From Companilactobacillus musae (GTDB taxonomy: Bacteria; Bacillota; Bacilli; Lactobacillales; Lactobacillaceae): 24,000 nucleotides of DNA. Both the position numbers and the translations under genes were made by a program. The stretch covers positions 52,468 through 76,467 of the forward strand of contig NZ_BIFW01000003.1 of NCBI RefSeq assembly GCF_003967595.1. The letters run 5' to 3'. The notes beneath the pieces are model-generated. The model was not told the origin of the DNA. It made no database searches and saw nothing but the letters and a program-made list of their open reading frames with translations. Shown one piece after another: positions 6,635 to 20,561 of this stretch. Each line of letters starts with the position of its first letter. The stretch's first letter is position 1.

Positions 6635-7372
6635 TTATCCCAATACCTTTTTAACAATTTCATACAACTTCTTAACATCCTCTGGTCTAGTTAAGCCGTC
6701 ATCACCAATGATTGAACTATATACATGAGGAATAATCTTCTTAACTCCGGCATCAACCGCAATTTGTAGAATTTCTTCAAAGTTATCTAAGTCAATTCCA
6801 CCAGTTGGTTCCAAATTAAAGTCATATTTAGCACAAGCTTCAGCTACGGCTTTGAACTCTACCTCATGTTTCAAACCACCCATTGGGAAGAATTTAATTG
6901 CTGTTCCACCCATATCTTTTAATAAGGCAATGGCTGTTTCAATTGGAACTTCAGCAGCAGGTTGTTGACTGCTTAAAGGACCTGTAGCAATATTTACCAA
7001 GCCTACTTTTCCGGTTGGTGAAACTAATCCATTAATAACTGTTTCATCTTCACCTAACAAAGCACGTGATGTTCCAACACCTGTAAATACTTGATTGACA
7101 TGTTGTGGTTTCAAAACTTTTGATACGCGGCTAACCATTTGACTTTGCTTGGGATCACCAGCGCCTAAACCAACTGAAATAGCATTTTCAACTTCTGCTT
7201 GATACTTCTTCATATCTTCAATGGCAGCTTCGTCTGTATCATAATTTTTTGTCAAAACTCCGACTACTGTGTGACCTTCAGCTGCGGCATAAATATCTTT
7301 AGCATTCTCCACAGAACCTGCAAGTACATTAATAGCAACTCTATCTTTATAATAATTAGGAATTAGTTTCAT
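6635..7372 (-). CDS. KDGP-aldolase family protein (former DUF1341); not homologous to Eda
   Basis: 245 aa. I recognise the blocks NVLAGS..NA..IY.AAEGH..VGVL.KNY, VGLGAGDP.QS.MV, PQHVNQVFTG, FPMGGLKH and EPTGGIDL.N as this family. It is the last gene of the operon. Confidence 0.7.
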   Translation of the reverse strand: MKLIPNYYKDRVAINVLAGSVENAKDIYAAAEGHTVVGVLTKNYDTDEAAIEDMKKYQAEVENAISVGLGAGDPKQSQMVSRVSKVLKPQHVNQVFTGVGTSRALLGEDETVINGLVSPTGKVGLVNIATGPLSSQQPAAEVPIETAIALLKDMGGTAIKFFPMGGLKHEVEFKAVAEACAKYDFNLEPTGGIDLDNFEEILQIAVDAGVKKIIPHVYSSIIGDDGLTRPEDVKKLYEIVKKVLG

Positions 7373-7387
7373 CTTTATATAAGCTCC

Positions 7388-8494
7388 TTAGTCCTTTTGA
7401 ATTTCTTGTAATCTATTTACAATTGCTTTCATTTCATTCGCATCAACTGCACGAATGTCAAATTCAATAATACCTTCGTTTGCTCTGTATTCACGTGTAT
7501 AAATAGCAGGATCGCCTTGCTTTAATTCTTTAGTTACTTCTTTAGCGTCTTTCTTAGAAGTTTCTTTAACGGTCACGGCTGCACGATAAATTTCACGACC
7601 TGCACCATCTTGAACTTCCTTAGCCTCAATATCAGGAACCTCATTTAAATCTTTTAAGAATGGTGCTAATCTTTGACGCATATGTTCACCATCTTCTGGT
7701 CCAATCTTGAGATAGCGTTCAATTGCCGCAGTTAAACCTAAGATATTTTCCTTACCGATCTTCATGGCACGGCCAATACCTTTCTTTTGTAGACGAATCC
7801 AATTAATATACTTAGCTTTACCATAAACTAAGCCTGATGCTGGTCCTTCTAGTGCTTTGGCACCACTAAAGATAATAATATCTACGCCTAGATCCAAATA
7901 TTTCTTCATATCTTCTTCTGCAGCAGCATCAAGAATCAATGGCAAATTATTTTTATGAGCTACTTCTACAGCTTCTTTGACGGATAGCATACTCTTTTGA
8001 ACTGTGTGGTGACTCTTTACATAAAGTACTGCTGCTGTTTTATCAGTTATCATCATTTCAATATGTTCTGGGGTACACATATTAGCATAGCCAGCTTCGA
8101 CAACATGTCCTCCACCAAGACTAATCATTACTTCTTCTGGAGTACCATAGTCGACATTGTGACCTTTAGGCATAATGATTTCACGTTTTTCAAAACGTGG
8201 ATCATTTGCATGATAAACATGATACATACTCCCCTGACCAATTAGAGCTGCAACAGACATTGCAATACCAGCTGAAGCCGAATTTACGACGATTGCATCT
8301 TCTGCACCCAATAATTTTGCTAAATGTTTTCCAGTTTGAACGTCCAAATCTGCCATTTCAAAGAAATGTGTATCACCAAATTGTTGAGCATCAATAACAT
8401 CTTCAGGCACTTGTGAAACACCCAAAATTGTCATCTTACCACTAGCATTAATAACCTTCTTTAATCCATATTCACTGTAAATATCTTCAGCCAA
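7388..8494 (-). CDS. DgaE/SelA-like pyridoxal-phosphate-dependent ammonia-lyase (D-glucosaminate-6-phosphate ammonia-lyase family)
   Basis: GLKKVINASGKMTILGVS N-terminal block and the PLP-lysine motif FSGAKALEGP. The track start at 8530 is a TTG inside the upstream gene. The TTG at 8494 sits 1 nt after that gene's TAA and 8 nt after GGAGG, giving MAEDIYSEYGLKKV. An alternative ATG lies at 8521. Confidence 0.75.
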   Translation of the reverse strand: MAEDIYSEYGLKKVINASGKMTILGVSQVPEDVIDAQQFGDTHFFEMADLDVQTGKHLAKLLGAEDAIVVNSASAGIAMSVAALIGQGSMYHVYHANDPRFEKREIIMPKGHNVDYGTPEEVMISLGGGHVVEAGYANMCTPEHIEMMITDKTAAVLYVKSHHTVQKSMLSVKEAVEVAHKNNLPLILDAAAEEDMKKYLDLGVDIIIFSGAKALEGPASGLVYGKAKYINWIRLQKKGIGRAMKIGKENILGLTAAIERYLKIGPEDGEHMRQRLAPFLKDLNEVPDIEAKEVQDGAGREIYRAAVTVKETSKKDAKEVTKELKQGDPAIYTREYRANEGIIEFDIRAVDANEMKAIVNRLQEIQKD

Positions 8495-8495
8495 T

Positions 8496-9608
8496 TTACT
8501 TTCCTCCAATTGAATATTCATTACCGGCAATAACCGAATAAATAGGTTTGATTAGCGTATCTGTCTTTCTTTGATTTCCATTTGAATCCGTTAAGACTTT
8601 TTCACCTTTTTCAACATTGAAAATTGTTAGATCTCCATCGTATCCTAAACGTAGAGAACCTTTGCTTTGTAAGTTGAAATTATCAACTGGAGCCCAAGTT
8701 ACCATTCTAATTACTTCTGGTAGTGAGTAGCCAATCAACAACATCTTTTCCAAAGTCGTTGCCATATCATAAACGGGACCATTGGCCCTATTTCTATGAT
8801 AAATATCGGTACTTACTGACTTAGGAATCAAGCCTTCATCACGTGCAATTTCTCCAGTTCTGAAGTTAAAACTGTCTGTTCCATGGCCAACATCAAAAAT
8901 CACACCACGATCATAAGCATCGAGTACGAAGTCCTTAATATGACCAGTCTTATCTAACATTCCATTAGGTTTTCCATTATAGGCATGTGTTAAGATATCG
9001 TCTCTAGACATTGAGTTTAAGACATCTTTTAATTCTGGGGGATTAGCTCCAACGTGAACCATAATTGGTAAATTAAGTTGTGCCTGAAATCTTTTAGCTT
9101 CCAATAGTGGTTTAACATCGTTATCAACAACTACTGAATGACTCTCTCTTACCTTAATACCAACAATGAAATCTTGTAATTCCTTCACTGCATCATAAAG
9201 AGGAGCTTTTTGAATTCTAGTAATATCGCCTAACTCATCCTGAGCCAAAATACCAGTCTTAGAAATATTAATCATTGCTAAAACATTAGTTTTCTTATCA
9301 CGAGTAATCTTATAAAAATCGCGAATATTGTCTGCACCAGTTGAACCAGCATCAATAACCGTTGTTACCCCAGTTAAATAACCATCTTTATCGGGATCAT
9401 CATAATAGAGACTTAGCTTTTCATAAGAATGTACATGATCATCAATCCATCCTGGAGTTACATATGATTCATGATGTAAATCAATCGTCTTTTTAGCAGT
9501 TATTCCCTCTAATTTTTCTCCGACTGCCGTAATTTTTCCATTTGTAATTGCAATTTCAATTGGTTGATTACGTTCTGTTTTACCATTCTTGATATATAAA
9601 TCTTCCAT
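8496..9608 (-). CDS. Amidohydrolase-superfamily metallo-hydrolase (deacetylase/deacylase-like)
   Basis: 370 aa. N-terminal beta-sandwich (IKNGK...ITAVG), HxH metal motif (WIDDHVHS), and later MVHVG, HAYNG and FDVGHG metal/substrate blocks typical of the amidohydrolase TIM-barrel superfamily. Confidence 0.8.
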   Translation of the reverse strand: MEDLYIKNGKTERNQPIEIAITNGKITAVGEKLEGITAKKTIDLHHESYVTPGWIDDHVHSYEKLSLYYDDPDKDGYLTGVTTVIDAGSTGADNIRDFYKITRDKKTNVLAMINISKTGILAQDELGDITRIQKAPLYDAVKELQDFIVGIKVRESHSVVVDNDVKPLLEAKRFQAQLNLPIMVHVGANPPELKDVLNSMSRDDILTHAYNGKPNGMLDKTGHIKDFVLDAYDRGVIFDVGHGTDSFNFRTGEIARDEGLIPKSVSTDIYHRNRANGPVYDMATTLEKMLLIGYSLPEVIRMVTWAPVDNFNLQSKGSLRLGYDGDLTIFNVEKGEKVLTDSNGNQRKTDTLIKPIYSVIAGNEYSIGGK

Positions 9609-9660
9609 TATAATTACACCTCAAATTTTTAAATATAAATTATTTCATTATTATTGGTAA

Positions 9661-10323
9661 TTAAACTGCAATTGGGAAGAAGAAGCCGAAAAGCATTGCA
9701 CCTAAGATTGCACCACCTGGCAATGGTTTCTTCCAAGCATAGAATATAGCAGCTCCGGCAGTTGCACCGATACCAATTGGAATTGATGCTGAAATGGCAC
9801 TCAAGATGATCAATGGTCCTAAGAAACGACCAGTTTCATTACCAGCACCCATCATAACGTCAGCTCCAAAAGTTGCATTTGACTGTCCAACCGTATACTT
9901 ACGAACAAAGAAAATTATCAAACCGATAATAATTCCAATCACTAATCCTGTAAGTAAAGCTAGTGGAAAGTTTTTAACAGGGGCAGTTAGTCCCATACTT
10001 AACATAATTGCTGGAATACCAATTCCAACACCAGTTAAAATCGAACCACCTAAATCCAAGATACCTACAAGTGAACCTTCCAAAACACGAGCAAATAAGA
10101 AACTTGCACCAAATGCTGCGGCAGGTCCAAATGACTTACCAGTTAATCCAGCCTTCAACATGGCTACAATAGCAACTTCATTAAAGGCACCCACTCCATA
10201 ATTTACATACATTGATGTTCCGGCAAAAACACCCATGGACATTAATCCGACAATAATAGGAAATGACCAATCTGCGTACCAGAAACTTTTTGCATGTTCT
10301 AGATCTTTCAAATCATCTTGCAT
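9661..10323 (-). CDS. Glycine-rich polytopic membrane protein, DUF4310-like
   Basis: 220 aa, almost entirely hydrophobic and Gly/Ala-rich segments (about 6 predicted by eye). RBS AAAGGAGGAA. The family name is from memory of this conserved gene neighbourhood. Confidence 0.65.
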   Translation of the reverse strand: MQDDLKDLEHAKSFWYADWSFPIIVGLMSMGVFAGTSMYVNYGVGAFNEVAIVAMLKAGLTGKSFGPAAAFGASFLFARVLEGSLVGILDLGGSILTGVGIGIPAIMLSMGLTAPVKNFPLALLTGLVIGIIIGLIIFFVRKYTVGQSNATFGADVMMGAGNETGRFLGPLIILSAISASIPIGIGATAGAAIFYAWKKPLPGGAILGAMLFGFFFPIAV

Positions 10324-10342
10324 GAGTTATTTCCTCCTTTAA

Positions 10343-11122
10343 TTATTTTGGTGTCACTACTGAATGCATATTGTTCAACCATGTTGGAATTCCGACTTTA
10401 AACGCCTTCAACATGTTGATATCGAATCCTCTGAAGAAACCACTCAAAACAAACAATGCTATTGTGGCGATAAGAATGATTCTTGTAATTCTCGTCCAAC
10501 CTAATTCATCGACACCTTTACCAACTAAAATTCCTAAAACAACACCAGGAACTGCATTGCCCATTATTAAAGCGGCTACACCGCCAAATACTGTTCCAAA
10601 CAATCCAGAACGACGACCAGCATCAATGGCAGCTAACCAGAAAAGAATAGGCATAACCATATTGATCAATGTATCTGCGGCTGGAACCAAAACTTTAACC
10701 GCTGTAACTTGTAACGATGCGGGAATTGATGCTGAAGTTACATTTAAAAACGGAACCAAGACTGCACCAATAATTCCACTAACAATACCCATCTTTTTAG
10801 GATTGTGGACTGTTTCCGCAACGTTTTTATTTTTTAATAAAAGAATACTTGCCGCCCAGTTTGGAATAACACGATGAGTTATATCCTGTGTAAAAGCACC
10901 AGCACCAACTGTTGATGCCCATGCATTGAAGAAGAAACCTAATCCAAATGAAAAGTGAGAAGCTGGATCGCCTTCTGCGGCATTCATTTCTCCAAGCGTT
11001 CTAAATGCACCTAGAGCTTGAACTGTTGGTGCATTGAACATACGAGCAGCACCAACACCGGCAGCAAATCCAACAGCAAGTCCAACAATTATGGACTCAA
11101 TTAAGATTGTTAATATTTGCAT
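10343..11122 (-). CDS. Polytopic membrane protein, DUF4311-like
   Basis: 259 aa with multiple hydrophobic segments. Its ATG overlaps the stop of the upstream gene (TAATG at 11120-11124), implying translational coupling. Confidence 0.65.
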   Translation of the reverse strand: MQILTILIESIIVGLAVGFAAGVGAARMFNAPTVQALGAFRTLGEMNAAEGDPASHFSFGLGFFFNAWASTVGAGAFTQDITHRVIPNWAASILLLKNKNVAETVHNPKKMGIVSGIIGAVLVPFLNVTSASIPASLQVTAVKVLVPAADTLINMVMPILFWLAAIDAGRRSGLFGTVFGGVAALIMGNAVPGVVLGILVGKGVDELGWTRITRIILIATIALFVLSGFFRGFDINMLKAFKVGIPTWLNNMHSVVTPK

Positions 11123-11493
11123 TATTTATCGCCCCTTAATAATTTCGTGAAATCAGGTATATTTATATGATCTGGTGACGGTATTTCATTATCAATAAAA
11201 TTAATATCAGACAATTTAACAGCATTTAATTCAACATCTACATCCAGAGTTAATTTGTAATTAACTCTGGTTCTCTTAAAGAAGAAGAACAGAAACTTTT
11301 CTTGATAAGAGACTCTTTCTGCATAAAGTACTCTGACTTCCTTAGGAATTATTTGTAAGGTTACTTGAGATTCATCTTTAATAACTTCATTACGAATATT
11401 ATTTAAAGCACTGGCAAACGCACGCTGCCTAGTTTCGCCATCACCAGAGACACGAACTGTTTTCACAAATTTTTTATTCAACTCTGAACTCAT
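11122..11493 (-). CDS. Small soluble protein, DUF4312-like
   Basis: I call the start at the ATG at 11493 (MSSELNKKF...), which lies 8 nt after GGAGGG. The 146-aa track ORF begins inside the upstream gene. No transmembrane segment, and alternating beta-type sequence. Confidence 0.6.
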   Translation of the reverse strand: MSSELNKKFVKTVRVSGDGETRQRAFASALNNIRNEVIKDESQVTLQIIPKEVRVLYAERVSYQEKFLFFFFKRTRVNYKLTLDVDVELNAVKLSDINFIDNEIPSPDHINIPDFTKLLRGDK

Positions 11494-11524
11494 TTCTTTC
11501 ACCCTCCAAATTAAAGCTCTATCT

Positions 11525-11887
11525 TTATGCCTTGTCAGGATATTGTTTTGCAAAAGTTTCAAGTAACTTCTTGCCTAATTCTTCCTTATCCATAAATCCA
11601 AATCCAAGAACTGTTTTTCCTTCTTGAATAGCTGTGATGCCTTCTTGAATTGATCTCATACCATGTCTTTCAGGATATCCATATTGTGTATTAGCGGTAA
11701 TAGCACCTGCACCGCCTGAACCACAGAATGAAATTCCCATATCGGCATTCTCATCATGCATAACTTTTCCTAGACGCATATCGGCTCCCATTCCTGGAAC
11801 AACAATTGCTTGCCCACCTGCATCTTCAATTCCTTTAGCAACTTTTTGGCCTTTACCCATTCTGTCTGCAATAACAACTTTAATCAT
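11525..11887 (-). CDS. Glycine-rich SFCGS-motif protein (DUF2620 / E. coli YhfU-like)
   Basis: 120 aa, with MIKVVIAD... at the N-terminus and GISFCGSGGAGAITANTQ in the middle. RBS AGGAGGA. Confidence 0.7.
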   Translation of the reverse strand: MIKVVIADRMGKGQKVAKGIEDAGGQAIVVPGMGADMRLGKVMHDENADMGISFCGSGGAGAITANTQYGYPERHGMRSIQEGITAIQEGKTVLGFGFMDKEELGKKLLETFAKQYPDKA

Positions 11888-11899
11888 AATAAATTCCTC

Positions 11900-12244
11900 C
11901 TAATTATTTTCTATAGCATTTTCAAAATGTATTGATAAAACAAATGGTTCTGATGGTGCTAAATTTCCGATTTTATTAGTAATATCTTTAGCAATGTTTA
12001 ACGCCGTATCAGACACTCCGCTGAATAATGATTCATCAACTGGATCTAATGATTGATTATCTTTTGATCTCATTACCATCTCTCCTAAGTGATTTGCCAA
12101 TACAGTCAATTGGAGATCAGTTAGATTCAAGTGATTCGTCGTGAGTTCTTTCATTGCAAATTTAAAAATACTGTATGTTTCATCCGGATATTTTGATTCT
12201 TTAATAATTTTGGCTATCTCGGGAATATCCCATTTATTTTGCAT
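11900..12244 (-). CDS. Stand-alone PRD-domain protein (E. coli YhfY-like)
   Basis: I call the start at the ATG at 12244 (MQNKWDIPE...), preceded by AGGAGGGG at 8 nt. It overlaps the regulator's 3' end by 11 nt. Two PRD-type histidine contexts: LANHLGEMVMRS and LSIHFENA. Confidence 0.7.
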   Translation of the reverse strand: MQNKWDIPEIAKIIKESKYPDETYSIFKFAMKELTTNHLNLTDLQLTVLANHLGEMVMRSKDNQSLDPVDESLFSGVSDTALNIAKDITNKIGNLAPSEPFVLSIHFENAIENN

Positions 12245-14105
12245 CAACTTGACCCCTCCTAGTATCAGATAAATGTACATATTCTAATATTGCGTTTATT
12301 TCTGATTCATTAATATCTAATCCATACTGATTAAATGTTTCCTTTAATTGCTTCTTGATCACTTGATTCGATGCTTGAATATTGTTTGTATCTTTATATT
12401 GTTCATTGAATTTAATTCGATGTATTGCCATAAATATATGAAGCATTAAAGCATCTTTATATTCATCAGAAACCTTATATTTCAATAAATTCATAACATC
12501 CTCATAAATCGAAAACATTGTCATTATCATTTCTCGGGATAACTTTTTAAATGAAGCATTGTTTTCAATTTTTGTTATCGAAGAATCAGGTTCCTTTTTT
12601 AAAGTATCAGGATTAACTTTTAAGATATTCGCTACCTTATTTTTTATTTGCTCAATATCTTGGCTAGTAGGTAATGGACTAACTTGAATTAACGGTGCAT
12701 TCAGATCAGTTAAGTCGAAGATACTAATTACCAAATCCGGTTTAAGTTTGTTTATTTGCTTTTTTGCGGCAATGAGTGAAGTAAAACCAGCAATTTCAAT
12801 GTTCGGAATATTTTCTTCTATTTTTTGTTGTATCAGATTAGTAACACCTAAACCTGTTGAACAAACATAAACAACTCTCACTTTTCTTTGATTGTTATGA
12901 ATCCTTTGCTCTGAAACCATAAAATGCAAAGCTAAAAATGAAACGAAGGAATCATTTACTATTGTTGGACTTGAAGAAACCTCTTTGATACAAACCTTAT
13001 ACAAAGCATTGAATAAACCTGGATAATTTGTCTTGATATCTTTTACAAACGGATTATATTCATTGGTAAATTGATATTTGCTATTAAATTTGCTCATTAA
13101 GTGCGATAACAAACTATCGAATAATTGCTTATCTTCACTGAATGGCTGGTTAACTTCCTCGCTAACTTCATTGATAATCAACTTTGTTAGAGTTACCAAA
13201 TTATCATCTTGAGGAATCGTTTGACCACCGTTTATAACATATTGATATTCGTCTTGATACAATGGAAAATCATATTCATCAAACATTCGTTTAAAGAGCT
13301 GAAAATCAAAAGTATCAAGCTTAACATCATTAAAATTTATCTCTTGGTAACTGTTAATCGGTTTATTAATACTTAACCTAGCAATAGAGATAGCTAATCG
13401 ACAAGAAATAGTTAATATATCGTTATAATCTAATTCTGAATTATCTTTATCAATTAGCCTGCTAGCATGTGTCAAAACTCTTTTTAGGATATATTCAAAT
13501 TCATTATTGAGACCTAGCAATAATCCAGTAACCTCATTAGAATTTAATTGCAATAAGTGAATAACCGAGTATATATCAAATTTTGAGATCACATCTTGTA
13601 TTGAAGATTCCATATATGATCTAATTGAGATTTCGCTACCAGTTAAGGTATATCCATAAAAATCTTTATGCTTTAGATGTAAATCAAATGTCCGCAAATT
13701 TTCTTTTATTTTGTCCAAATCATTCAACATCGTACTTTCACTGACATTTAATTTATTTTGAAGCTGTTGTAAAGTAACAGTCTGGTCTGTCAATGAAAGT
13801 AAAAATACTATTTGTAGTATTCTTTTTTGTGGAGCTGGATAATACTCAAATCCCGTTTGACCAATTAATTGTTTCCTAATTTCTTGTCTCACAGTTAACT
13901 CATTTTTTAACCAAATGCCAACGTGAGGTTTAGTTTGAAAAACTTGATTATCTTCTTTAAACCATTCTTTCAAATCTTTTAAATCATATTTAATTGTTCT
14001 AACACTTACACCATATATATCCGAAAGCCTTTGAATAGTAATTGGATCATCCCGATTCAACAATAGATAGACTATTTTGATTTCCCTATCTGTTAATTGC
14101 ACCAT
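12234..14105 (-). CDS. PRD- and EIIB-domain transcriptional regulator (MtlR/LicR/ManR-like; usually auto-annotated as a BglG-family antiterminator)
   Basis: 623 aa. It has two N-terminal HTH/Mga-like modules (aa ~1-160) and PRD-like regions containing LLSHLMS and LALHFMVSEQR. An EIIB(Gat)-like module follows with VRVVYVCSTGLGVTN (Cys415, codon 12861-12863). The ~100-aa C-terminal region carries LMLHIFMAIHRIKFNEQ. RBS GGAGG. Confidence 0.8.
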   Translation of the reverse strand: MVQLTDREIKIVYLLLNRDDPITIQRLSDIYGVSVRTIKYDLKDLKEWFKEDNQVFQTKPHVGIWLKNELTVRQEIRKQLIGQTGFEYYPAPQKRILQIVFLLSLTDQTVTLQQLQNKLNVSESTMLNDLDKIKENLRTFDLHLKHKDFYGYTLTGSEISIRSYMESSIQDVISKFDIYSVIHLLQLNSNEVTGLLLGLNNEFEYILKRVLTHASRLIDKDNSELDYNDILTISCRLAISIARLSINKPINSYQEINFNDVKLDTFDFQLFKRMFDEYDFPLYQDEYQYVINGGQTIPQDDNLVTLTKLIINEVSEEVNQPFSEDKQLFDSLLSHLMSKFNSKYQFTNEYNPFVKDIKTNYPGLFNALYKVCIKEVSSSPTIVNDSFVSFLALHFMVSEQRIHNNQRKVRVVYVCSTGLGVTNLIQQKIEENIPNIEIAGFTSLIAAKKQINKLKPDLVISIFDLTDLNAPLIQVSPLPTSQDIEQIKNKVANILKVNPDTLKKEPDSSITKIENNASFKKLSREMIMTMFSIYEDVMNLLKYKVSDEYKDALMLHIFMAIHRIKFNEQYKDTNNIQASNQVIKKQLKETFNQYGLDINESEINAILEYVHLSDTRRGQVDAK

Positions 14106-14181: not shown

Positions 14182-14282
14182 CACCTAATGTATGCACCAT
14201 AAATAGTGCAATTGATATATTTATAAAAACCAATTGGGTAATTAGCTCACCTATAAGTCTATGAAATCTACTAGAAAGTAGT

Positions 14283-14311
14283 TATATAGAGAAAATACAG
14301 GTATAGACCAA
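14283..14311 (-). promoter_or_regulatory. Candidate distal sigma-A promoter (P2)
   Basis: On the minus strand: TTGGTC (14311-14306), 17-bp spacer, TATATA (14288-14283). It would give a leader of about 170 nt. Confidence 0.3.
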
Positions 14312-14329
14312 TTTTTATATTTCATAAAA

Positions 14330-14401
14330 GGTAATTTAAATATAAAAATATTTTTTTGCAGGTAATTATTAAACACTTAATAAAAAAAACGTGTGGTAAT
14401 A
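14330..14401. repeat. Phased GGTAAT(T/A) direct repeats upstream of P2; candidate activator binding sites
   Basis: GGTAATT at 14330-14336 and 14361-14367, and GGTAATA at 14395-14401 (spacing 31 and 34 bp). A fourth GGTAATT lies at 14237-14243. A G-containing heptamer recurring this often in ~370 bp of AT-rich spacer is unexpected. Confidence 0.35.
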
Positions 14402-14435
14402 TTATTGTAAAAAATTTATTATTCTTAAAAACACA

Positions 14436-14474
14436 TAAAAACACCCATATCGTTGAGAATATGGGTGTTTTTTG
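14436..14474 (-). terminator. Rho-independent terminator of glpK-glpO-apbE (structure is bidirectional)
   Basis: 10-bp perfect stem ACACCCATAT (14441-14450) / ATATGGGTGT (14459-14468) with an 8-nt loop. T-runs flank it on both strands. It starts directly after the apbE stop. Confidence 0.8.
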
Positions 14475-14475
14475 A

Positions 14476-15423
14476 TCAATCCAATTTAAAAGAATGATCA
14501 GTAAGCGTAAATCTGTTTTTTATATTATCCGTTAAACGAATCGTTCTATCTTTGTAAACAAAAATCAAACCTATAGAATCATTATCTAATAATTCCAAAG
14601 TACCTTCATAATCATTATAAAATCCTAAGCTAGACCAAATCTCGCCATCGATTGATCTCGGACTTACAACCGTGACACCCACTAAATCAGTTTTTACTGG
14701 ATATCCCGTCTTAGGGTCCATAATGTGATGGTAACTGTGACCTTTCTTATTTAAAAATCTTTCATAAATACCAGAGGTCACAATTGAATAATCTTGTGTT
14801 TTTAAGACTCCTAAATAATCATCTCTTGTATCAAAGGGCGACTGAACGCCTACGTTCCAAAAGCCACTCTCATGCGTGCTCTGGCCTACCAGAAGAACGT
14901 TTCCCCCTAGGTCAATAATTCCTTGATCGACTCCGGTTTCCAGCCATAGTTCCTTGATTGCATCAGCAATATATCCCTTGGCTATTCCACCTAAATCAAG
15001 CTCCATTCCTTCATCTAATAAGTAAACTGACCGATCTTTATCATTTAACATAATACGTCCAGGATTAGTCAATTTTAAACGATGAGCAATTTGCTTATCA
15101 CTCGGAACTTCCGCATCGGAAAATCCTATGTGCCAAAGTTTTACTAAGGGTCCAATAGCTGCGTTAAAGCCATGATTTTCTTGACTAACCCGTACCGCTT
15201 CCTTAACTAGATCATAACTAATCTTAGAAACAGGCACTGCATACTTTCCAGAAGCATGATTGATCGACATAATTTCTGACTCTGTCCGATTGACGGTCAA
15301 TAAGTCTTCACAGTATTGAACCAATTCATAGGCTTTATCAAGAGCTGGTACTTGCCCTTCTTGAAAAACAGTCAATTTAATCTCTGTACCTAATGCATGA
15401 TAGACCTTAGTAAAATTCGACAT
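14476..15423 (-). CDS. apbE: FAD:protein FMN transferase (ApbE family) without signal peptide or lipobox
   Basis: 315 aa. ApbE blocks ALGTEIKLTV, DLGGIAKGY, TSG.YER and HHIMDPKTGYP. The N-terminus MSNFTKVYHALGT has no hydrophobic leader and no Cys. Confidence 0.85.
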   Translation of the reverse strand: MSNFTKVYHALGTEIKLTVFQEGQVPALDKAYELVQYCEDLLTVNRTESEIMSINHASGKYAVPVSKISYDLVKEAVRVSQENHGFNAAIGPLVKLWHIGFSDAEVPSDKQIAHRLKLTNPGRIMLNDKDRSVYLLDEGMELDLGGIAKGYIADAIKELWLETGVDQGIIDLGGNVLLVGQSTHESGFWNVGVQSPFDTRDDYLGVLKTQDYSIVTSGIYERFLNKKGHSYHHIMDPKTGYPVKTDLVGVTVVSPRSIDGEIWSSLGFYNDYEGTLELLDNDSIGLIFVYKDRTIRLTDNIKNRFTLTDHSFKLD

Positions 15424-15468
15424 AATACAACTCCCAATAACAAAATTTCTCAGAAGTTAATCAGTTTA

Positions 15469-17244
15469 TTATGCTTTAACGGATTCATTTTCTTTCAAAT
15501 AATCCAATTCAGCTTCACTGATTAATTCGTTTGTCTTTTCTGTATAATCCTTGATTTGATCATCTGTCCAATCGTAGTATTTAGCCATTTCACTAATTAC
15601 ACCATCTTTAATGCTCTTAATTTCGTCATGGTTAAATAGTAAGTTATTTGTACGACGGAAGAGATAATCTTCTGGTGTTAGAGTCATTTCATTTTCCATT
15701 GAATAGTGCAAACTCAAAGTTTCTGCCAAACTCAATCCAGCAATTGGTTTAACATCCTTAGCTTCAGCAATGACTTCTTCAGTATTTGAACCAAAGATAT
15801 TTGCCATCTTCTCGGCTCCGACTGGATCTACACCTGCGGCAACAGCCTCTTGAGCATACTTTTTGAGTTCTTCTTCAGCGTGATTTGAATCAAAGTCACC
15901 ACCGGAAACTTTGATATTAGCTGAATCAACTGGCTTATAATCACGAGCATATTGTGTATTCATAATTTCAATAATCATCTTCATAGCACCATCAGCCATC
16001 TTACGATAGTCAGTCAACTTACCACCGGCTAAGGTAATCAAACCATCATCAGCACGTTTCAATGAGCTACCTCTAGATACTTGAGAAGCAGTCAACTTAT
16101 GACTACCAGAATCACTAGCACCAGAAACTACATCTGGCTTTTCTTCTTTTTTATCATCTACCGGAGCAGGTTCTTCGGCAACAAGAGGTCTTACACCAGC
16201 CCAACTTGATTCAACATCATCAAGTGTAATATGAGCTTCTGGATACTTCTTGTTGATGATCTTTAATAAGTAGTCAACATCGCCTTGTTCTACCTTAGGA
16301 TGTGTTAAATCACCCTTAAAGTCAGTATCAGTTGTACCGAAGTATGTCTTACCATCTCTTGGAATTGTAAAGATCATACGACCATCATTAGTACCTGATC
16401 CAAAGTATGTTGGCTTTGGTACATTCAATCTAGATTGATCAACGACTAAATGAACACCCTTAGTTGGACGCATTTGAGTCTTAGCTTGATCATGCTTGTC
16501 ATCCAAATCTTTAACAAAGTCTGACCATGGACCTGAAGCATTAAGAACGATCTTGGCTTTAACATCAAACTCTTCACCACTGATCATATCTTTAACAGTT
16601 ACACCGCATGCATTGCCAAATTGATTATGAATAACCTTGACTGCCTTCATTCGGCTGACCATAAGTCCTCCGAGTTCATGAGCCTTCTTAATATTTTCAA
16701 TAACCAAACGAGAATCATTATTCAAGTAATCTAGATAAATTCCACCACCTGCAAGATTTTCAGGATTTAGTTGTGGTTCTAGTTTCAATACTTGTTCTTT
16801 ATTCAAAGTGTAATTAGCATACTTCTTCAAATGTTCTGATTCGTTGATTCCTGCCAAACGATCATATAGATCCATGGCAACTTTTACAGAAAACATTGAG
16901 AATGTCGTTCCAGGTTCATCATAAATTGGTAGCAACATTGGATCTGGTCTAGTTACGTGTGGTGCAACATGTTGAATAACTGCACGTTCTTGGACCGTAT
17001 CAGAAACAACCTCAACATCAAAGCTCTTGAGATATCTGATCCCACCATGAACTAGTCGTGTTGATCTTGATGAAGTACCAGCTCCAAAGTCTTGCATATC
17101 AATCAAAGCTGTTCTCATACCAGCAGCGCTAGCTTGTAGAGCAACACCTGCTCCGGTAATACCACCACCAATGATTAGTAAATCAAGTCTTCTAGTTTTT
17201 AATTTTTTTATTTCTTCTGCTCTACTTTTAATTGAAAATGTCAT
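15469..17244 (-). CDS. glpO: Alpha-glycerophosphate (glycerol-3-phosphate) oxidase, type 1 with internal insert
   Basis: FAD dinucleotide fold DLLIIGGGITGAGVA and GlpD/GlpO core blocks. A ~50-aa insert (VAEEPAPVDDKKEEKPDVVSGASDSGSHKLTASQ...) is characteristic of lactic-acid-bacterial GlpO. I call the start at the ATG at 17244 (GAGGGA 6 nt upstream); the track start at 17268 is a TTG. Confidence 0.9.
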   Translation of the reverse strand: MTFSIKSRAEEIKKLKTRRLDLLIIGGGITGAGVALQASAAGMRTALIDMQDFGAGTSSRSTRLVHGGIRYLKSFDVEVVSDTVQERAVIQHVAPHVTRPDPMLLPIYDEPGTTFSMFSVKVAMDLYDRLAGINESEHLKKYANYTLNKEQVLKLEPQLNPENLAGGGIYLDYLNNDSRLVIENIKKAHELGGLMVSRMKAVKVIHNQFGNACGVTVKDMISGEEFDVKAKIVLNASGPWSDFVKDLDDKHDQAKTQMRPTKGVHLVVDQSRLNVPKPTYFGSGTNDGRMIFTIPRDGKTYFGTTDTDFKGDLTHPKVEQGDVDYLLKIINKKYPEAHITLDDVESSWAGVRPLVAEEPAPVDDKKEEKPDVVSGASDSGSHKLTASQVSRGSSLKRADDGLITLAGGKLTDYRKMADGAMKMIIEIMNTQYARDYKPVDSANIKVSGGDFDSNHAEEELKKYAQEAVAAGVDPVGAEKMANIFGSNTEEVIAEAKDVKPIAGLSLAETLSLHYSMENEMTLTPEDYLFRRTNNLLFNHDEIKSIKDGVISEMAKYYDWTDDQIKDYTEKTNELISEAELDYLKENESVKA

Positions 17245-17300
17245 AGTTCGTCCCTCGTTACTACGCAAAAGATAATCAATTTGATCATCTGCAATGCATT

Positions 17301-18821
<1,521 letters not shown>

Positions 18822-18933
18822 TTATGAAAGAGGTGTGACTAGCTTAGTAGTCCCACAATTGCCACCATCCCTGACGACAAATACTAAGTTAACTTTTATT
18901 AACTCCTAACATAAATCTAAATCTTACTTTCTT

Positions 18934-19869
18934 TTAAGCTAATTCAATTTTTTTGTTAAGAACTTCTTGTGCTTCATCCATTAATTTCTTGACGATTTCT
19001 CCAGCTGGTAATGATTCTTTGATTAGGCCTGAAACTTGTCCACTAAATACCAAGCCATCTTCAACGTCATCTTTTTGAACGGCGTTTCTCAAGCCTTCAT
19101 TCATAACTGAATTGAATTCATCACGTGATACTTGATCTAATTCAAGTTCTGTCAATTTGTTAGCAATGTTGTTCTTGATAATACGTGAAGCATCTTTGAT
19201 TGTGGCACCAGCAACAACTGTTGATGTATCAGTAGCATCAATAACTAATTTTCTCCAGTTATCTCCAACAGGACTTTCTTTAGCAATTGAGAAGATTGTT
19301 CCACATTGAACACCCTTAGCACCAGCAACAAAGGCATTTACAACACCACGTCCATCACCAATACCACCAGCAGCGATAAGTGGAATTGAAACTGCATCAG
19401 CAATTTGTGGCCAGAGAGTTTGTGAAGTCAAGACACCAATGTGACCTCCACCTTCCATACCTTCGGCAATAACGGCATCAGCACCCATTTCTTCCATCTT
19501 CTTAGCGATTTTAACGTTAGGAATAACAGGACATACCTTAATTCCAGCGGCTTTCAAATCTTTCATATATGGCTTTGGTGTACCAGCACCAGTTGTGACA
19601 ACTTTAACGCCTTCATCGATAACGACCTTAACAACTTCTGGTGTGTTAGGATCCATCAACATCAAGTTAACGGCGAATGTATTATTAGTTAATTTCTTAG
19701 CCTTTTGAATTTCTGCTCTTACTTGTTCAGGTGTTTTACCACCAGCAGCGATAATACCAAGGCCCCCACCATTTGATACGGCAGCTGCTAGATCAGCAGT
19801 AGCAACTTCTTGCATAGCTCCTTGTACAACTGGGTATTTGATTCCTAAAAGTTTACATACTTCATTCAT
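18934..19869 (-). CDS. FMN-dependent NAD(P)H oxidoreductase, nitronate monooxygenase / FabK-like
   Basis: MNEVCKLLGIKYPVVQGAM..., GGLGII, EGMEGGGHIG and AAGGIGDGRG blocks. I call the start at the ATG at 19869, 8 nt after GGAGGA. The 26-codon upstream extension in the track has no RBS and runs into an inverted repeat. Confidence 0.8.
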   Translation of the reverse strand: MNEVCKLLGIKYPVVQGAMQEVATADLAAAVSNGGGLGIIAAGGKTPEQVRAEIQKAKKLTNNTFAVNLMLMDPNTPEVVKVVIDEGVKVVTTGAGTPKPYMKDLKAAGIKVCPVIPNVKIAKKMEEMGADAVIAEGMEGGGHIGVLTSQTLWPQIADAVSIPLIAAGGIGDGRGVVNAFVAGAKGVQCGTIFSIAKESPVGDNWRKLVIDATDTSTVVAGATIKDASRIIKNNIANKLTELELDQVSRDEFNSVMNEGLRNAVQKDDVEDGLVFSGQVSGLIKESLPAGEIVKKLMDEAQEVLNKKIELA

Positions 19870-19932
19870 TTTTAACATCCTCCAATAGAAAATTAAGTGA
19901 TAACCAAATCCATAAATGAAATTCATAGTTTT

Positions 19933-19978
19933 AAAATCAATTTTCATTTTCCTAGGCTAAATATTGAAAATTGATTTT
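19933..19978. promoter_or_regulatory. 14-bp perfect inverted repeat upstream of the FabK/NMO-like gene
   Basis: AAAATCAATTTTCA (19933-19946) and TGAAAATTGATTTT (19965-19978) separated by 18 nt, 64-110 nt upstream of the ATG. It could be an operator or a leader RNA hairpin. Confidence 0.4.
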
Positions 19979-19998
19979 CGTTTGCAATAATTTTTATT

Positions 19999-20013
19999 AT
20001 GCAAACGATTACT
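19999..20013. promoter_or_regulatory. cre-like site
   Basis: ATGCAAACGATTACT fits WTGNAANCGNWNNCW with no mismatch (two mismatches to the stricter TGWAANCGNTNWCA). Confidence 0.4.
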
Positions 20014-20157
20014 TGTGAAAACCATTTCTTTAATCTCTCGAGCGCTCCTACAATTTATAATACAAGCGATTATTCTAATTGCAAATTACGTTCAAATTTT
20101 TACTATTTATTAAATTATCAAAAATGCTGATTTAACAGCTTTTTGTAAATTCAGCAA

Positions 20158-20172
20158 TTGTAAGCGTTTACC
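20158..20172. promoter_or_regulatory. cre-like site
   Basis: TTGTAAGCGTTTACC, one mismatch (last base) to WTGNAANCGNWNNCW. It lies ~290 bp upstream of the nearest start codon, so function is doubtful. Confidence 0.35.
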
Positions 20173-20561
20173 TGATTTTTGTGGCAATTGTTGATAAATT
20201 ATAGCCACTACCGCTTTTATATCAACGTTTTTACGTAGTATAACTAGCTATTATGGTTATTATGATAAACAGTAAAGCATTTTTTTGCTTGAATTCATCA
20301 AATTAGCTTTATTGTTGATATATGTCATTTTAAGATATTTATTTTTGGATATTACGATAACATTTGCATAATTTAAAGTTATAGTATCTATATACGTTCT
20401 TTATTGCTCTGGTTTTTATCAAAAATTAAGCATTACAATTTTTAGTTATTGTATTCAAATAATAGACTTATTTTATTATAAATATCAAACTACATTTTAA
20501 CCAGAAAAATCGTATAATTTAAGTATAGTAGTTTGTATCTATTTAAAACAATTTTCATTAA

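Follow-up and report, generated by a model that had tools for sequence, protein, structure and literature searches.

The glycerol-3-phosphate oxidase GlpO encoded in a 24,000-nucleotide stretch of the Companilactobacillus musae genome (contig NZ_BIFW01000003.1, positions 52,468 to 76,467; the whole stretch is called the window here) probably carries a second, covalently tethered flavin, to judge from its sequence and those of its relatives. The reading that we consider probable, with some reserve, is that GlpO of this clade of Lactobacillaceae is a cytoplasmic substrate of the flavin transferase ApbE with which it is co-transcribed, and that ApbE would place flavin mononucleotide (FMN) on Ser377, giving a second flavin beside flavin adenine dinucleotide (FAD) that is likely to act as an electron relay. 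The comparative evidence supports flavinylation of GlpO; we infer both the attachment of FMN itself and its role as a relay. GlpO is the textbook FAD oxidase, a reagent enzyme in diagnostics and an H2O2-producing virulence factor in streptococci and mycoplasmas, and we know of no function assigned so far to the insert in which Ser377 lies. The features that carry the argument are:

15469..17244, minus strand: glpO, FAD-dependent type-1 glycerol-3-phosphate oxidase, 591 residues, no signal peptide (NF033461, 877 bits)
16087..16179, minus strand: Lactobacillaceae-type insert of GlpO, about residues 356-386, from an alignment of 26 non-redundant homologs
16114..16134, minus strand: D371-V-V-S-G-A-S377, ApbE-type motif with the predicted FMN acceptor Ser377 at nucleotides 16114-16116
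14476..15423, minus strand: apbE, leaderless, cytoplasmic FAD:protein FMN transferase, 315 residues (PF02424, E = 9.5e-71)

The insert of GlpO and its heptad

GlpO matches NF033461 (877.3 bits against a cutoff of 840) and both PF01266 (DAO) and PF16901 (DAO_C), with the Rossmann signature GGGITGAG at residues 26-33; Pfam finds in it only DAO, DAO_C and FAD-binding Rossmann families, and no FMN_bind domain (PF04205). Its start is the ATG at 17244, preceded by the ribosome-binding site GAGGGA, and residues M1, F3 and S4 are invariant among homologs. The alignment of 26 non-redundant GlpOs (62-85% identical to the query and less than 90% to each other) delimits an acidic, low-complexity insert, rich in insertions and deletions, between the AGVRPL strand, of which R352 corresponds to R317 of E. 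coli GlpD, and the FAD-contact segment SRGSS...GGKLTDYR. The insert begins 4 residues past R352, and Arg317 of E. coli GlpD is a ligand of the substrate phosphate. Because it is bounded by a substrate arginine and a flavin-contact segment, the insert emerges beside the active site in the sequence. An AlphaFold2 model built from a 32-sequence alignment, poor as a whole (mean predicted local distance difference test score, pLDDT, 62.5), weakly suggests that residues 349-393 are unstructured, giving them pLDDT below 50 and no secondary structure.

The motif had been placed by the first-pass annotation in the insert that distinguishes GlpO from GlpD. Sequence comparison bears this out as far as Bacillus and E. 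coli GlpD are concerned, from which the insert is absent altogether, but it is not the insert of Enterococcus and Streptococcus GlpO; it is a shorter, clade-specific version (about 27 residues versus about 50-54). The Streptococcus/Enterococcus enzyme (PDB 2RGO/2RGH), at most 58% identical, is also a type-1 oxidase with an insert at the equivalent position after WAGxRPL, but that longer insert (DYNGG...SR.EVE...) lacks the motif, and its operon reads glpK-glpO-glpF without apbE.

Nucleotides 16093-16152 of the minus strand translate to KKEEKPDVVSGASDSGSHKL, in which D371-S377 spans 16134..16114, so that the heptad is where it had been read at first. It fits exactly the published minimal ApbE motif D-x-x-[S/T]-G-A-[S/T] (PMC12052999). 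According to the same 2025 review, seven residues at a terminus or in a surface loop suffice for flavinylation, and Ser is accepted as the acceptor somewhat less efficiently (PMC12052999). Among six-frame open reading frames of at least 60 residues in the window, DVVSGAS is the only match to D..[ST][GS]A[ST], which upholds an inspection by eye that had found no other full match. From the residue frequencies of the window, 0.003 matches are expected per GlpO-sized protein, in line with an initial guess of well under 1 percent, and 0.036 over all window proteins. A chance origin of the motif was rejected on the strength of this expectation together with its invariance across diverged sequences.

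Residues D371, G375, A376 and S377 are conserved in all 26 aligned GlpOs (100%), whereas only S or T stands at position 374, A (73% of relatives) or V (the remainder) at position 372, and V, A or T at position 373; the flanks of the motif within the insert are at most about 50% conserved and have many insertions and deletions. The constrained positions coincide one-for-one with those of ApbE substrates. Each motif codon varies synonymously across loci (GAT/GAC, GGT/GGC/GGA, GCA/GCC/GCT, AGT/AGC), and therefore the constraint is on the protein rather than the DNA; by this comparison the motif is under selection. It is present in 120 of the 120 closest GlpO homologs, down to 62% identity, which include Companilactobacillus, Lactiplantibacillus, Ligilactobacillus and the Lactobacillus apis group. 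A search against representatives clustered at 50% identity gave three matches, all off-site by chance, the motif clade being hidden there under an Enterococcus-type representative.

Two departures from the commonest form of the motif, Val at its second position and Ser rather than Thr as the acceptor, had been raised as caveats, and neither sets GlpO apart. Val occurs in part of the GlpO relatives, and the motif is E-V-V-S-G-A-T in the PplA-like FMN_bind lipoprotein whose gene adjoins that of streptococcal FmnB, so Val at positions 2-3 is normal for this lineage of ApbE. Ser is the acceptor in FMN_bind clients of the lineage in Companilactobacillus and Oenococcus (DTVSGAS, DAVSGAS) and in FMN reductases of Lactococcus for which flavinylation was demonstrated by experiment (PMC11334425).

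One sublineage of GlpO (loci L086-L088 and L151) carries, besides the motif in the insert, a second copy on a C-terminal tail that ends in ...QETSEPADAVSGASKHE and a stop codon. That one enzyme gained the heptad at two sites has no easy explanation other than modification there. These enzymes (L086 5971-7809, L087 5971-7809, L151 1-1557) belong to higher-GC Lactobacillaceae and are 61% identical to the window enzyme; their insert motif reads DAVSGAS or DVVSGAS, and PADAVSGASKHE stands at the very C-terminus. No apbE lies within 6 kb in L086 and L088, and the sequences of L087 and L151 end too soon downstream to show whether one is there.

The leaderless ApbE and its linkage to glpO

The product of apbE matches PF02424 over residues 11-282 (238.9 bits against a cutoff of 25.6), and its best solved relative is Listeria FmnB (7ESA, E = 3.5e-74). 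It had been described as lacking a signal peptide and a lipobox, and three lines of evidence agree. The reading frame begins at the most upstream start codon after a stop, which makes an N-terminal extension or leader impossible; residue 4 of the N-terminus MSNFTKVYHALGT aligns with chain residue 22 of 7ESA, where the mature FmnB core begins; and there is neither a hydrophobic N-terminal stretch nor a lipobox Cys, the first Cys being residue 38. The 120 closest homologs, of 303-325 residues, are all leaderless too. ApbE and GlpO, both leaderless, share a compartment.

ApbE looks catalytically competent from its sequence. In an alignment of 122 sequences, comprising 120 leaderless relatives and two streptococcal FmnB outgroups, the equivalents of FmnB Ser257, Arg262 and His273 (VTSG, YER, YHH) are invariant, and the equivalent of Asp301 is Glu in the window ApbE and in 103 of the 122, a conservative change. 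Listeria FmnB and the ApbE of the streptococcal extracellular electron transfer (EET) locus are the closest relatives in sequence and structure, with the catalytic residues in common, but both are lipoproteins that have a signal peptide and lipobox (streptococcal leaders MKK..LLVAC) and act extracellularly on PplA-type proteins from the locus Ndh2-DmkB-PplA-FmnB-DmkA, and the window ApbE is shorter by about 35 N-terminal residues. The streptococcal matches, 39-42% identical, were rejected as orthologs, L009 and L013 being FmnB lipoproteins of the EET locus, and served as outgroups only.

The adjacency of apbE to glpO follows the motif. In a metagenome scan that yielded 80 GlpO loci, the short acidic insert with the motif was found in 8 of 8 GlpOs at 59-68% identity to the query, and 72 of 72 at 58% identity or less had the long Enterococcus/Streptococcus insert without it; the solved Streptococcus enzyme 2RGO falls in the motif-negative class. 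The 72 motif-negative loci are glpK-glpO-glpF or glpO-glpK-glpF operons, as had been stated for enterococci and streptococci, and none of them has an apbE neighbour. A leaderless apbE is adjacent in ten loci (the window, L001-L005, L073, L074, L078 and L079), all of the motif type, with two gene orders and at least three lineages. The co-variation of motif and adjacent apbE that was proposed as a check is thus observed: 10 of 10 apbE-linked GlpOs have the motif. The gene lies directly 3' of glpO in the window, in five other Companilactobacillus species, in two Logan lineages (L074 and L078, with the order NMO-[glpF]-glpK-glpO-apbE) and in a metagenome locus (L079, glpF-glpK-glpO-apbE).

In Liquorilactobacillus mali the order is glpK-apbE-glpO, followed by genes for an FAD synthetase, an FMN_bind/FAD_binding_2 reductase and an OYE-type enzyme, and GlpO carries DVVSGAS despite only 60% identity to the window enzyme. 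The neighbourhood is kept across this rearrangement, which argues for a functional link between glpO and apbE. In this cluster (L073 6382-16125, AKKT01000082.1) the FAD synthetase has the FAD_syn domain only, the reductase contains DTISGAT, and the last enzyme is of the OYE/Pyr_redox type; the whole resembles an entire cytosolic route for electrons from glycerol-3-phosphate to an acceptor of the enoate type.

Predicted function of the proposed tethered flavin

According to the proposed mechanism, ApbE would transfer FMN from FAD, with Mg2+, onto Ser377 through a phosphoester bond in the disordered insert; the predicted FMN-bearing peptide of GlpO includes PDVVSGASDSGSHK, with a mass shift of +438.09 Da. 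GlpO would keep its non-covalent FAD and hold the second FMN on a flexible arm beside the entrance of the active site. The FMN would be a second flavin because the FAD signatures of GlpO (GGGITGAG, the conserved acidic residue that ends beta2, and GGKLTDYR) do not vary among homologs; replacement of FAD by a tethered FMN was rejected, these FAD/ADP-binding signatures being intact throughout. The tethered FMN would take electrons from reduced FAD and hand them to acceptors other than O2, for which the candidates are cytosolic FMN_bind/FAD_binding_2 reductases, the NMO-like enzyme encoded upstream and flavodoxin-like partners, and an H2O2-forming oxidase would thereby gain a dehydrogenase-type outlet. 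Circumstantial support for a relay comes from redox genes that cluster with the operons: those for the FMN_bind reductase, OYE-type enzyme and FAD synthetase of L. mali, a flavodoxin-like gene after glpO in loci of the Ligilactobacillus type, and the NMO gene upstream in many.

The ApbE enzyme and the acquisition of motifs by flavoproteins are already known. Huang et al. (2024, mSystems, PMC11334425) mined GTDB for apbE-linked proteins with motif-like sequences and, by co-expression and Ala mutants, found two kinds of protein to be flavinylated on Ser/Thr by their cognate ApbE, namely FMN_red proteins whose C-terminal extension is unstructured and Flavodoxin_4 proteins that contain an internal insertion; these were the only two new substrate families of that survey, and GlpO was not among them. 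The Firmicutes proteins of the FMN_red and the Flavodoxin_4 families resemble GlpO in being flavoproteins with a short motif in an unstructured insertion or tail, a co-located apbE and a Ser acceptor, but their FMN is tethered into their own conserved FMN site, whereas GlpO is an FAD enzyme without one, in which FMN would be an extra cofactor. The cytoplasmic ApbE and soluble fumarate reductase of Klebsiella pneumoniae, and the NADH:acrylate and NADH:cinnamate reductases (Bertsova/Bogachev), as summarized in PMC12052999, likewise pair a leaderless ApbE with a cytosolic flavoenzyme in which covalent FMN relays electrons between flavins; according to that summary their acceptor site lies in a folded FMN_bind domain, which GlpO does not have. 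In the engineered Flavin-tag (Tong et al. 2021, as cited in PMC12052999), a bare heptad, put into a surface loop or onto a terminus of an unrelated protein, was enough for FMN attachment; that tag is synthetic, and the GlpO insert would be its natural equivalent.

What would be new is the class of substrate, an FAD-dependent oxidase of the DAO family modified in an internal disordered insert rather than at an FMN site. A literature search for a link between GlpO or glycerophosphate oxidase and ApbE or flavinylation returned none, the sole co-mention being an unrelated pneumococcal study. If the prediction is correct, GlpO is the first ApbE substrate known among the FAD-dependent enzymes of the DAO superfamily, and its insert is a natural flavin-tag that adds a second flavin instead of fixing an existing one. 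ApbE flavinylation would then reach further into the cytoplasm, a compartment left out by the signal-peptide filter of large surveys; the 2021 survey dropped every ApbE or FMN_bind gene that lacked a signal peptide (PMC8238504). A covalent FMN on GlpO would also suggest a way in which respiration-deficient lactobacilli of food and gut oxidize glycerol-3-phosphate without O2 or with less H2O2, which matters for the physiology of fermentation, for peroxide stress and for how oxidase biosensors are designed.

A broader extension of the prediction, offered tentatively and in our estimate somewhat improbable, is that Lactobacillaceae use ApbE-tethered flavins on flexible arms as a cytoplasmic electron wire, in which FMN on Ser377 would shuttle electrons of FADH2 to soluble reductases of the fumarate or hydroxycinnamate type or to NMO-like or flavodoxin-like partners. 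GlpO would then be an O2-independent glycerol-3-phosphate dehydrogenase in bacteria without a respiratory chain, and the repeated gain of the motif by this enzyme, both in the insert and on the C-terminal tail, would be accounted for. Enterococci can oxidize glycerol anaerobically with fumarate; a literature search for GlpO together with fumarate reductase found nothing.

Several observations weigh against flavinylation of GlpO and a relay through it. GlpO has neither an FMN-binding domain nor a known FMN pocket, and in the proven substrates, with their motif in a loop or tail, FMN is tethered into an FMN site already present, which leaves the role of FMN in GlpO without direct precedent. To our knowledge, no purified GlpO has been reported to contain FMN. 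The AlphaFold2 model, at the mean pLDDT given above, is too poor to place the insert relative to FAD. The distribution of the motif is wider than adjacency to apbE: eight motif-type loci, among them L080, L086 and L088 and those of L. apis, Lactiplantibacillus daowaiensis and a Ligilactobacillus, lack an apbE within 1.4-8 kb. The lineages behind the adjacency data are related and not phylogenetically independent, and in L. mali the true client of ApbE could be the FMN_bind reductase of the same cluster.

This last point leads to an alternative that we judge quite unlikely, in which the real clients of ApbE are FMN_bind/FAD_binding_2 reductases and FMN_red proteins encoded elsewhere, the position of apbE reflects co-regulated maturation of flavoenzymes, and the heptad of GlpO is kept for another role such as phosphorylation, partner binding or a lid. 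In its favour are the L. mali reductase, encoded two genes from glpO, the many motif-type GlpOs without an adjoining apbE, and leaderless ApbEs of this clade that do adjoin canonical clients (in L072, in L076 and on the L. paracasei plasmid L161). C. musae, however, has a second leaderless ApbE, 54% identical to the glpO-linked copy, that adjoins an FAD_binding_2/FMN_bind reductase (DTVSGAS), a small FMN_red protein and an FMN_red-PAS_10 protein. Because this paralog adjoins them, the canonical clients have a transferase of their own and the glpO-linked ApbE is not needed there. The objection that a client encoded elsewhere might prove to be the sole substrate is weakened by this arrangement. 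In a neighbour-joining tree without bootstrap, the glpO-linked ApbEs fall outside the clade of the second paralog, yet are not monophyletic. The one-for-one match of the constrained positions of GlpO to the ApbE motif, the absence of apbE beside all 72 motif-less glpO genes, and the second C-terminal copy in another GlpO lineage, which is hard to fit with a structural lid, also tell against clients elsewhere.

The FMN_red-PAS_10 protein encoded beside the second paralog (L072 9646-10848, QWDH01000006.1) has a disordered tail ending in ...EIDATSGASEKPEVKVDVTSSASKH and a stop codon, with bare flavinylation motifs. Among its homologs (P0391-P0510), 112 of 118 tails have one to four tandem copies of D-A-T-S-G-A-S-E with variable linkers, in Companilactobacillus, Lentilactobacillus, Pediococcus, Leuconostoc, Ligilactobacillus agilis and other taxa, which widens the C-terminal-extension class of Huang et al. 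(2024), whose members have one or two motifs, to include a PAS_10 fusion that bears as many as four sites. These tails, the substrates of that study and the tail copy of GlpO together indicate that ApbEs of this group act on linear motifs in disordered segments of flavoproteins. The triad of ApbE, FMN_red and FMN_red/PAS_10 is also present on Lacticaseibacillus plasmids, and a plasmid search with ApbE recovered only this triad and no glpO. The FMN_red-PAS_10 loci of Ligilactobacillus agilis and Lactiplantibacillus also lack an adjacent apbE. Two leaderless ApbEs of the same clade (L077 8001-8957 and L075 8001-8945, 54% and 53% identical to that of the window) have no recognizable adjoining client, one, from a human-gut metagenome, lying beside MsrA/MsrB and the other, from Secundilactobacillus, having genes for fumarase and an FAD_binding_2 protein 4-7 kb away; cytoplasmic ApbEs are therefore not always encoded next to their substrates.

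Equally doubtful in our view is that GlpO is flavinylated but the FMN is not a relay, serving instead as a regulatory plug or lid over the active site, in flavin retention, or as a modulator of O2 reactivity or H2O2 release. The start of the insert so close to the substrate-binding R352 would suit such a plug, and in the proven cases the attached FMN just fills a flavin site. The FAD-binding signatures are all kept, however, so that FMN cannot replace FAD, and redox partners cluster with the operons in L. mali, in the Ligilactobacillus-type loci and, in the form of NMO, upstream in many. That the ApbE homolog is mainly an Ftp-type FAD pyrophosphatase that tunes the FMN and FAD pools without modifying protein is very improbable: Asn (LTVNR) stands where FAD-binding ApbEs have Tyr, as in T. 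pallidum Ftp and the non-yellow Ftps of Gram-positive bacteria, but hydrolysis by Ftp is single-turnover, both classes of ApbE keep FMN transferase activity when given a protein substrate (PMC4767422), and the closest solved relative, Listeria FmnB, is a bona fide transferase.

Operon structure and neighbouring genes

On the minus strand the gene order, with identities from Pfam and NCBIfam, is NMO/FabK-like enzyme, glpK, glpO and apbE, and the further features of the operon are:

14437..14472, minus strand: intrinsic terminator common to the operon, 15-bp stem with 4 GC pairs and a T-run
17301..18800, minus strand: glpK, glycerol kinase, 499 residues, gene 1 of the glycerol branch (NF000756, 848 bits; FGGY_N and FGGY_C)
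18934..19947, minus strand: NMO/FabK-like FMN enzyme (PF03060, E = 5.8e-64)
20198..20225, minus strand: best promoter-like site, TTGATA-16-TATAAT, 11/12 matches, upstream of the NMO gene

The hairpin at 14472->14437, just 3' of apbE, is the sole terminator-like site on the minus strand within 14200-20300, and the claim of a single terminator for the operon stands. The gap of 45 nucleotides between glpO and apbE was also given correctly, but the 32 nucleotides given between glpK and glpO hold only for an upstream TTG at 17268; counted from the ATG at 17244, the gap is 56 nucleotides. A Pfam scan of the window proteins found no MIP/glpF gene anywhere in the 24 kb; the first-pass annotation had stated that ApbE replaces glpF after glpO. 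Replacement is too strong a word: two relatives (L078 and L079) keep glpF together with apbE in the order glpF-glpK-glpO-apbE, and apbE is therefore an addition to the operon rather than strictly a substitute for glpF. The window ApbE matches the C. musae protein P0121 at 100% identity, and the nearest species by genome scan is C. crustorum, with 90% identity in ApbE and 96% in GlpO.

The NMO-like protein scores 351 bits against the FabK model, under the cutoff of 453. Its true start is probably near 19869 (MNEVCKLLG), the annotated start at 19947 being too long, as homologs align from about residue 27. The gene may be the first of a four-gene operon, co-transcribed from the promoter-like site at 20198-20225, a call that is a consensus match only; promoter-like sites across the region number 26 versus 23.7 expected from shuffled sequence, which is not above expectation. 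It is syntenic with motif-type glp operons in L001-L005, L069, L074 and L078. The enzyme directly upstream of these operons is 73-77% identical across genera (L069 4565-5503, L074 3556-4494, L078 2688-3626).

In loci of the Ligilactobacillus type (L070 9831-10229, L071 7860-8258, L080 2084-2482), a gene for a 132-residue protein directly follows motif-type glpO. The protein has a flavodoxin-like N-terminus (CSKSGNTEKVA) and weak matches to Flavodoxin_5/_3 under the Pfam cutoffs, and could be an FMN-binding partner of GlpO; genes for FAD synthetase and the riboflavin S-component of an energy-coupling factor (ECF) transporter lie nearby.

Downstream of apbE, also on the minus strand, the window holds a cluster of uncharacterized genes (6635-14105), comprising a PRD/Mga-HTH regulator (12234-14105), a 126-residue open reading frame without a Pfam match, a Gly-rich SFCGS protein, DUF4312, DUF4311 and DUF4310 proteins, an amidohydrolase, a SelA-like pyridoxal phosphate enzyme and KDGP aldolase. 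The cluster resembles a poorly understood system for uptake and catabolism of a sugar or amino-sugar.

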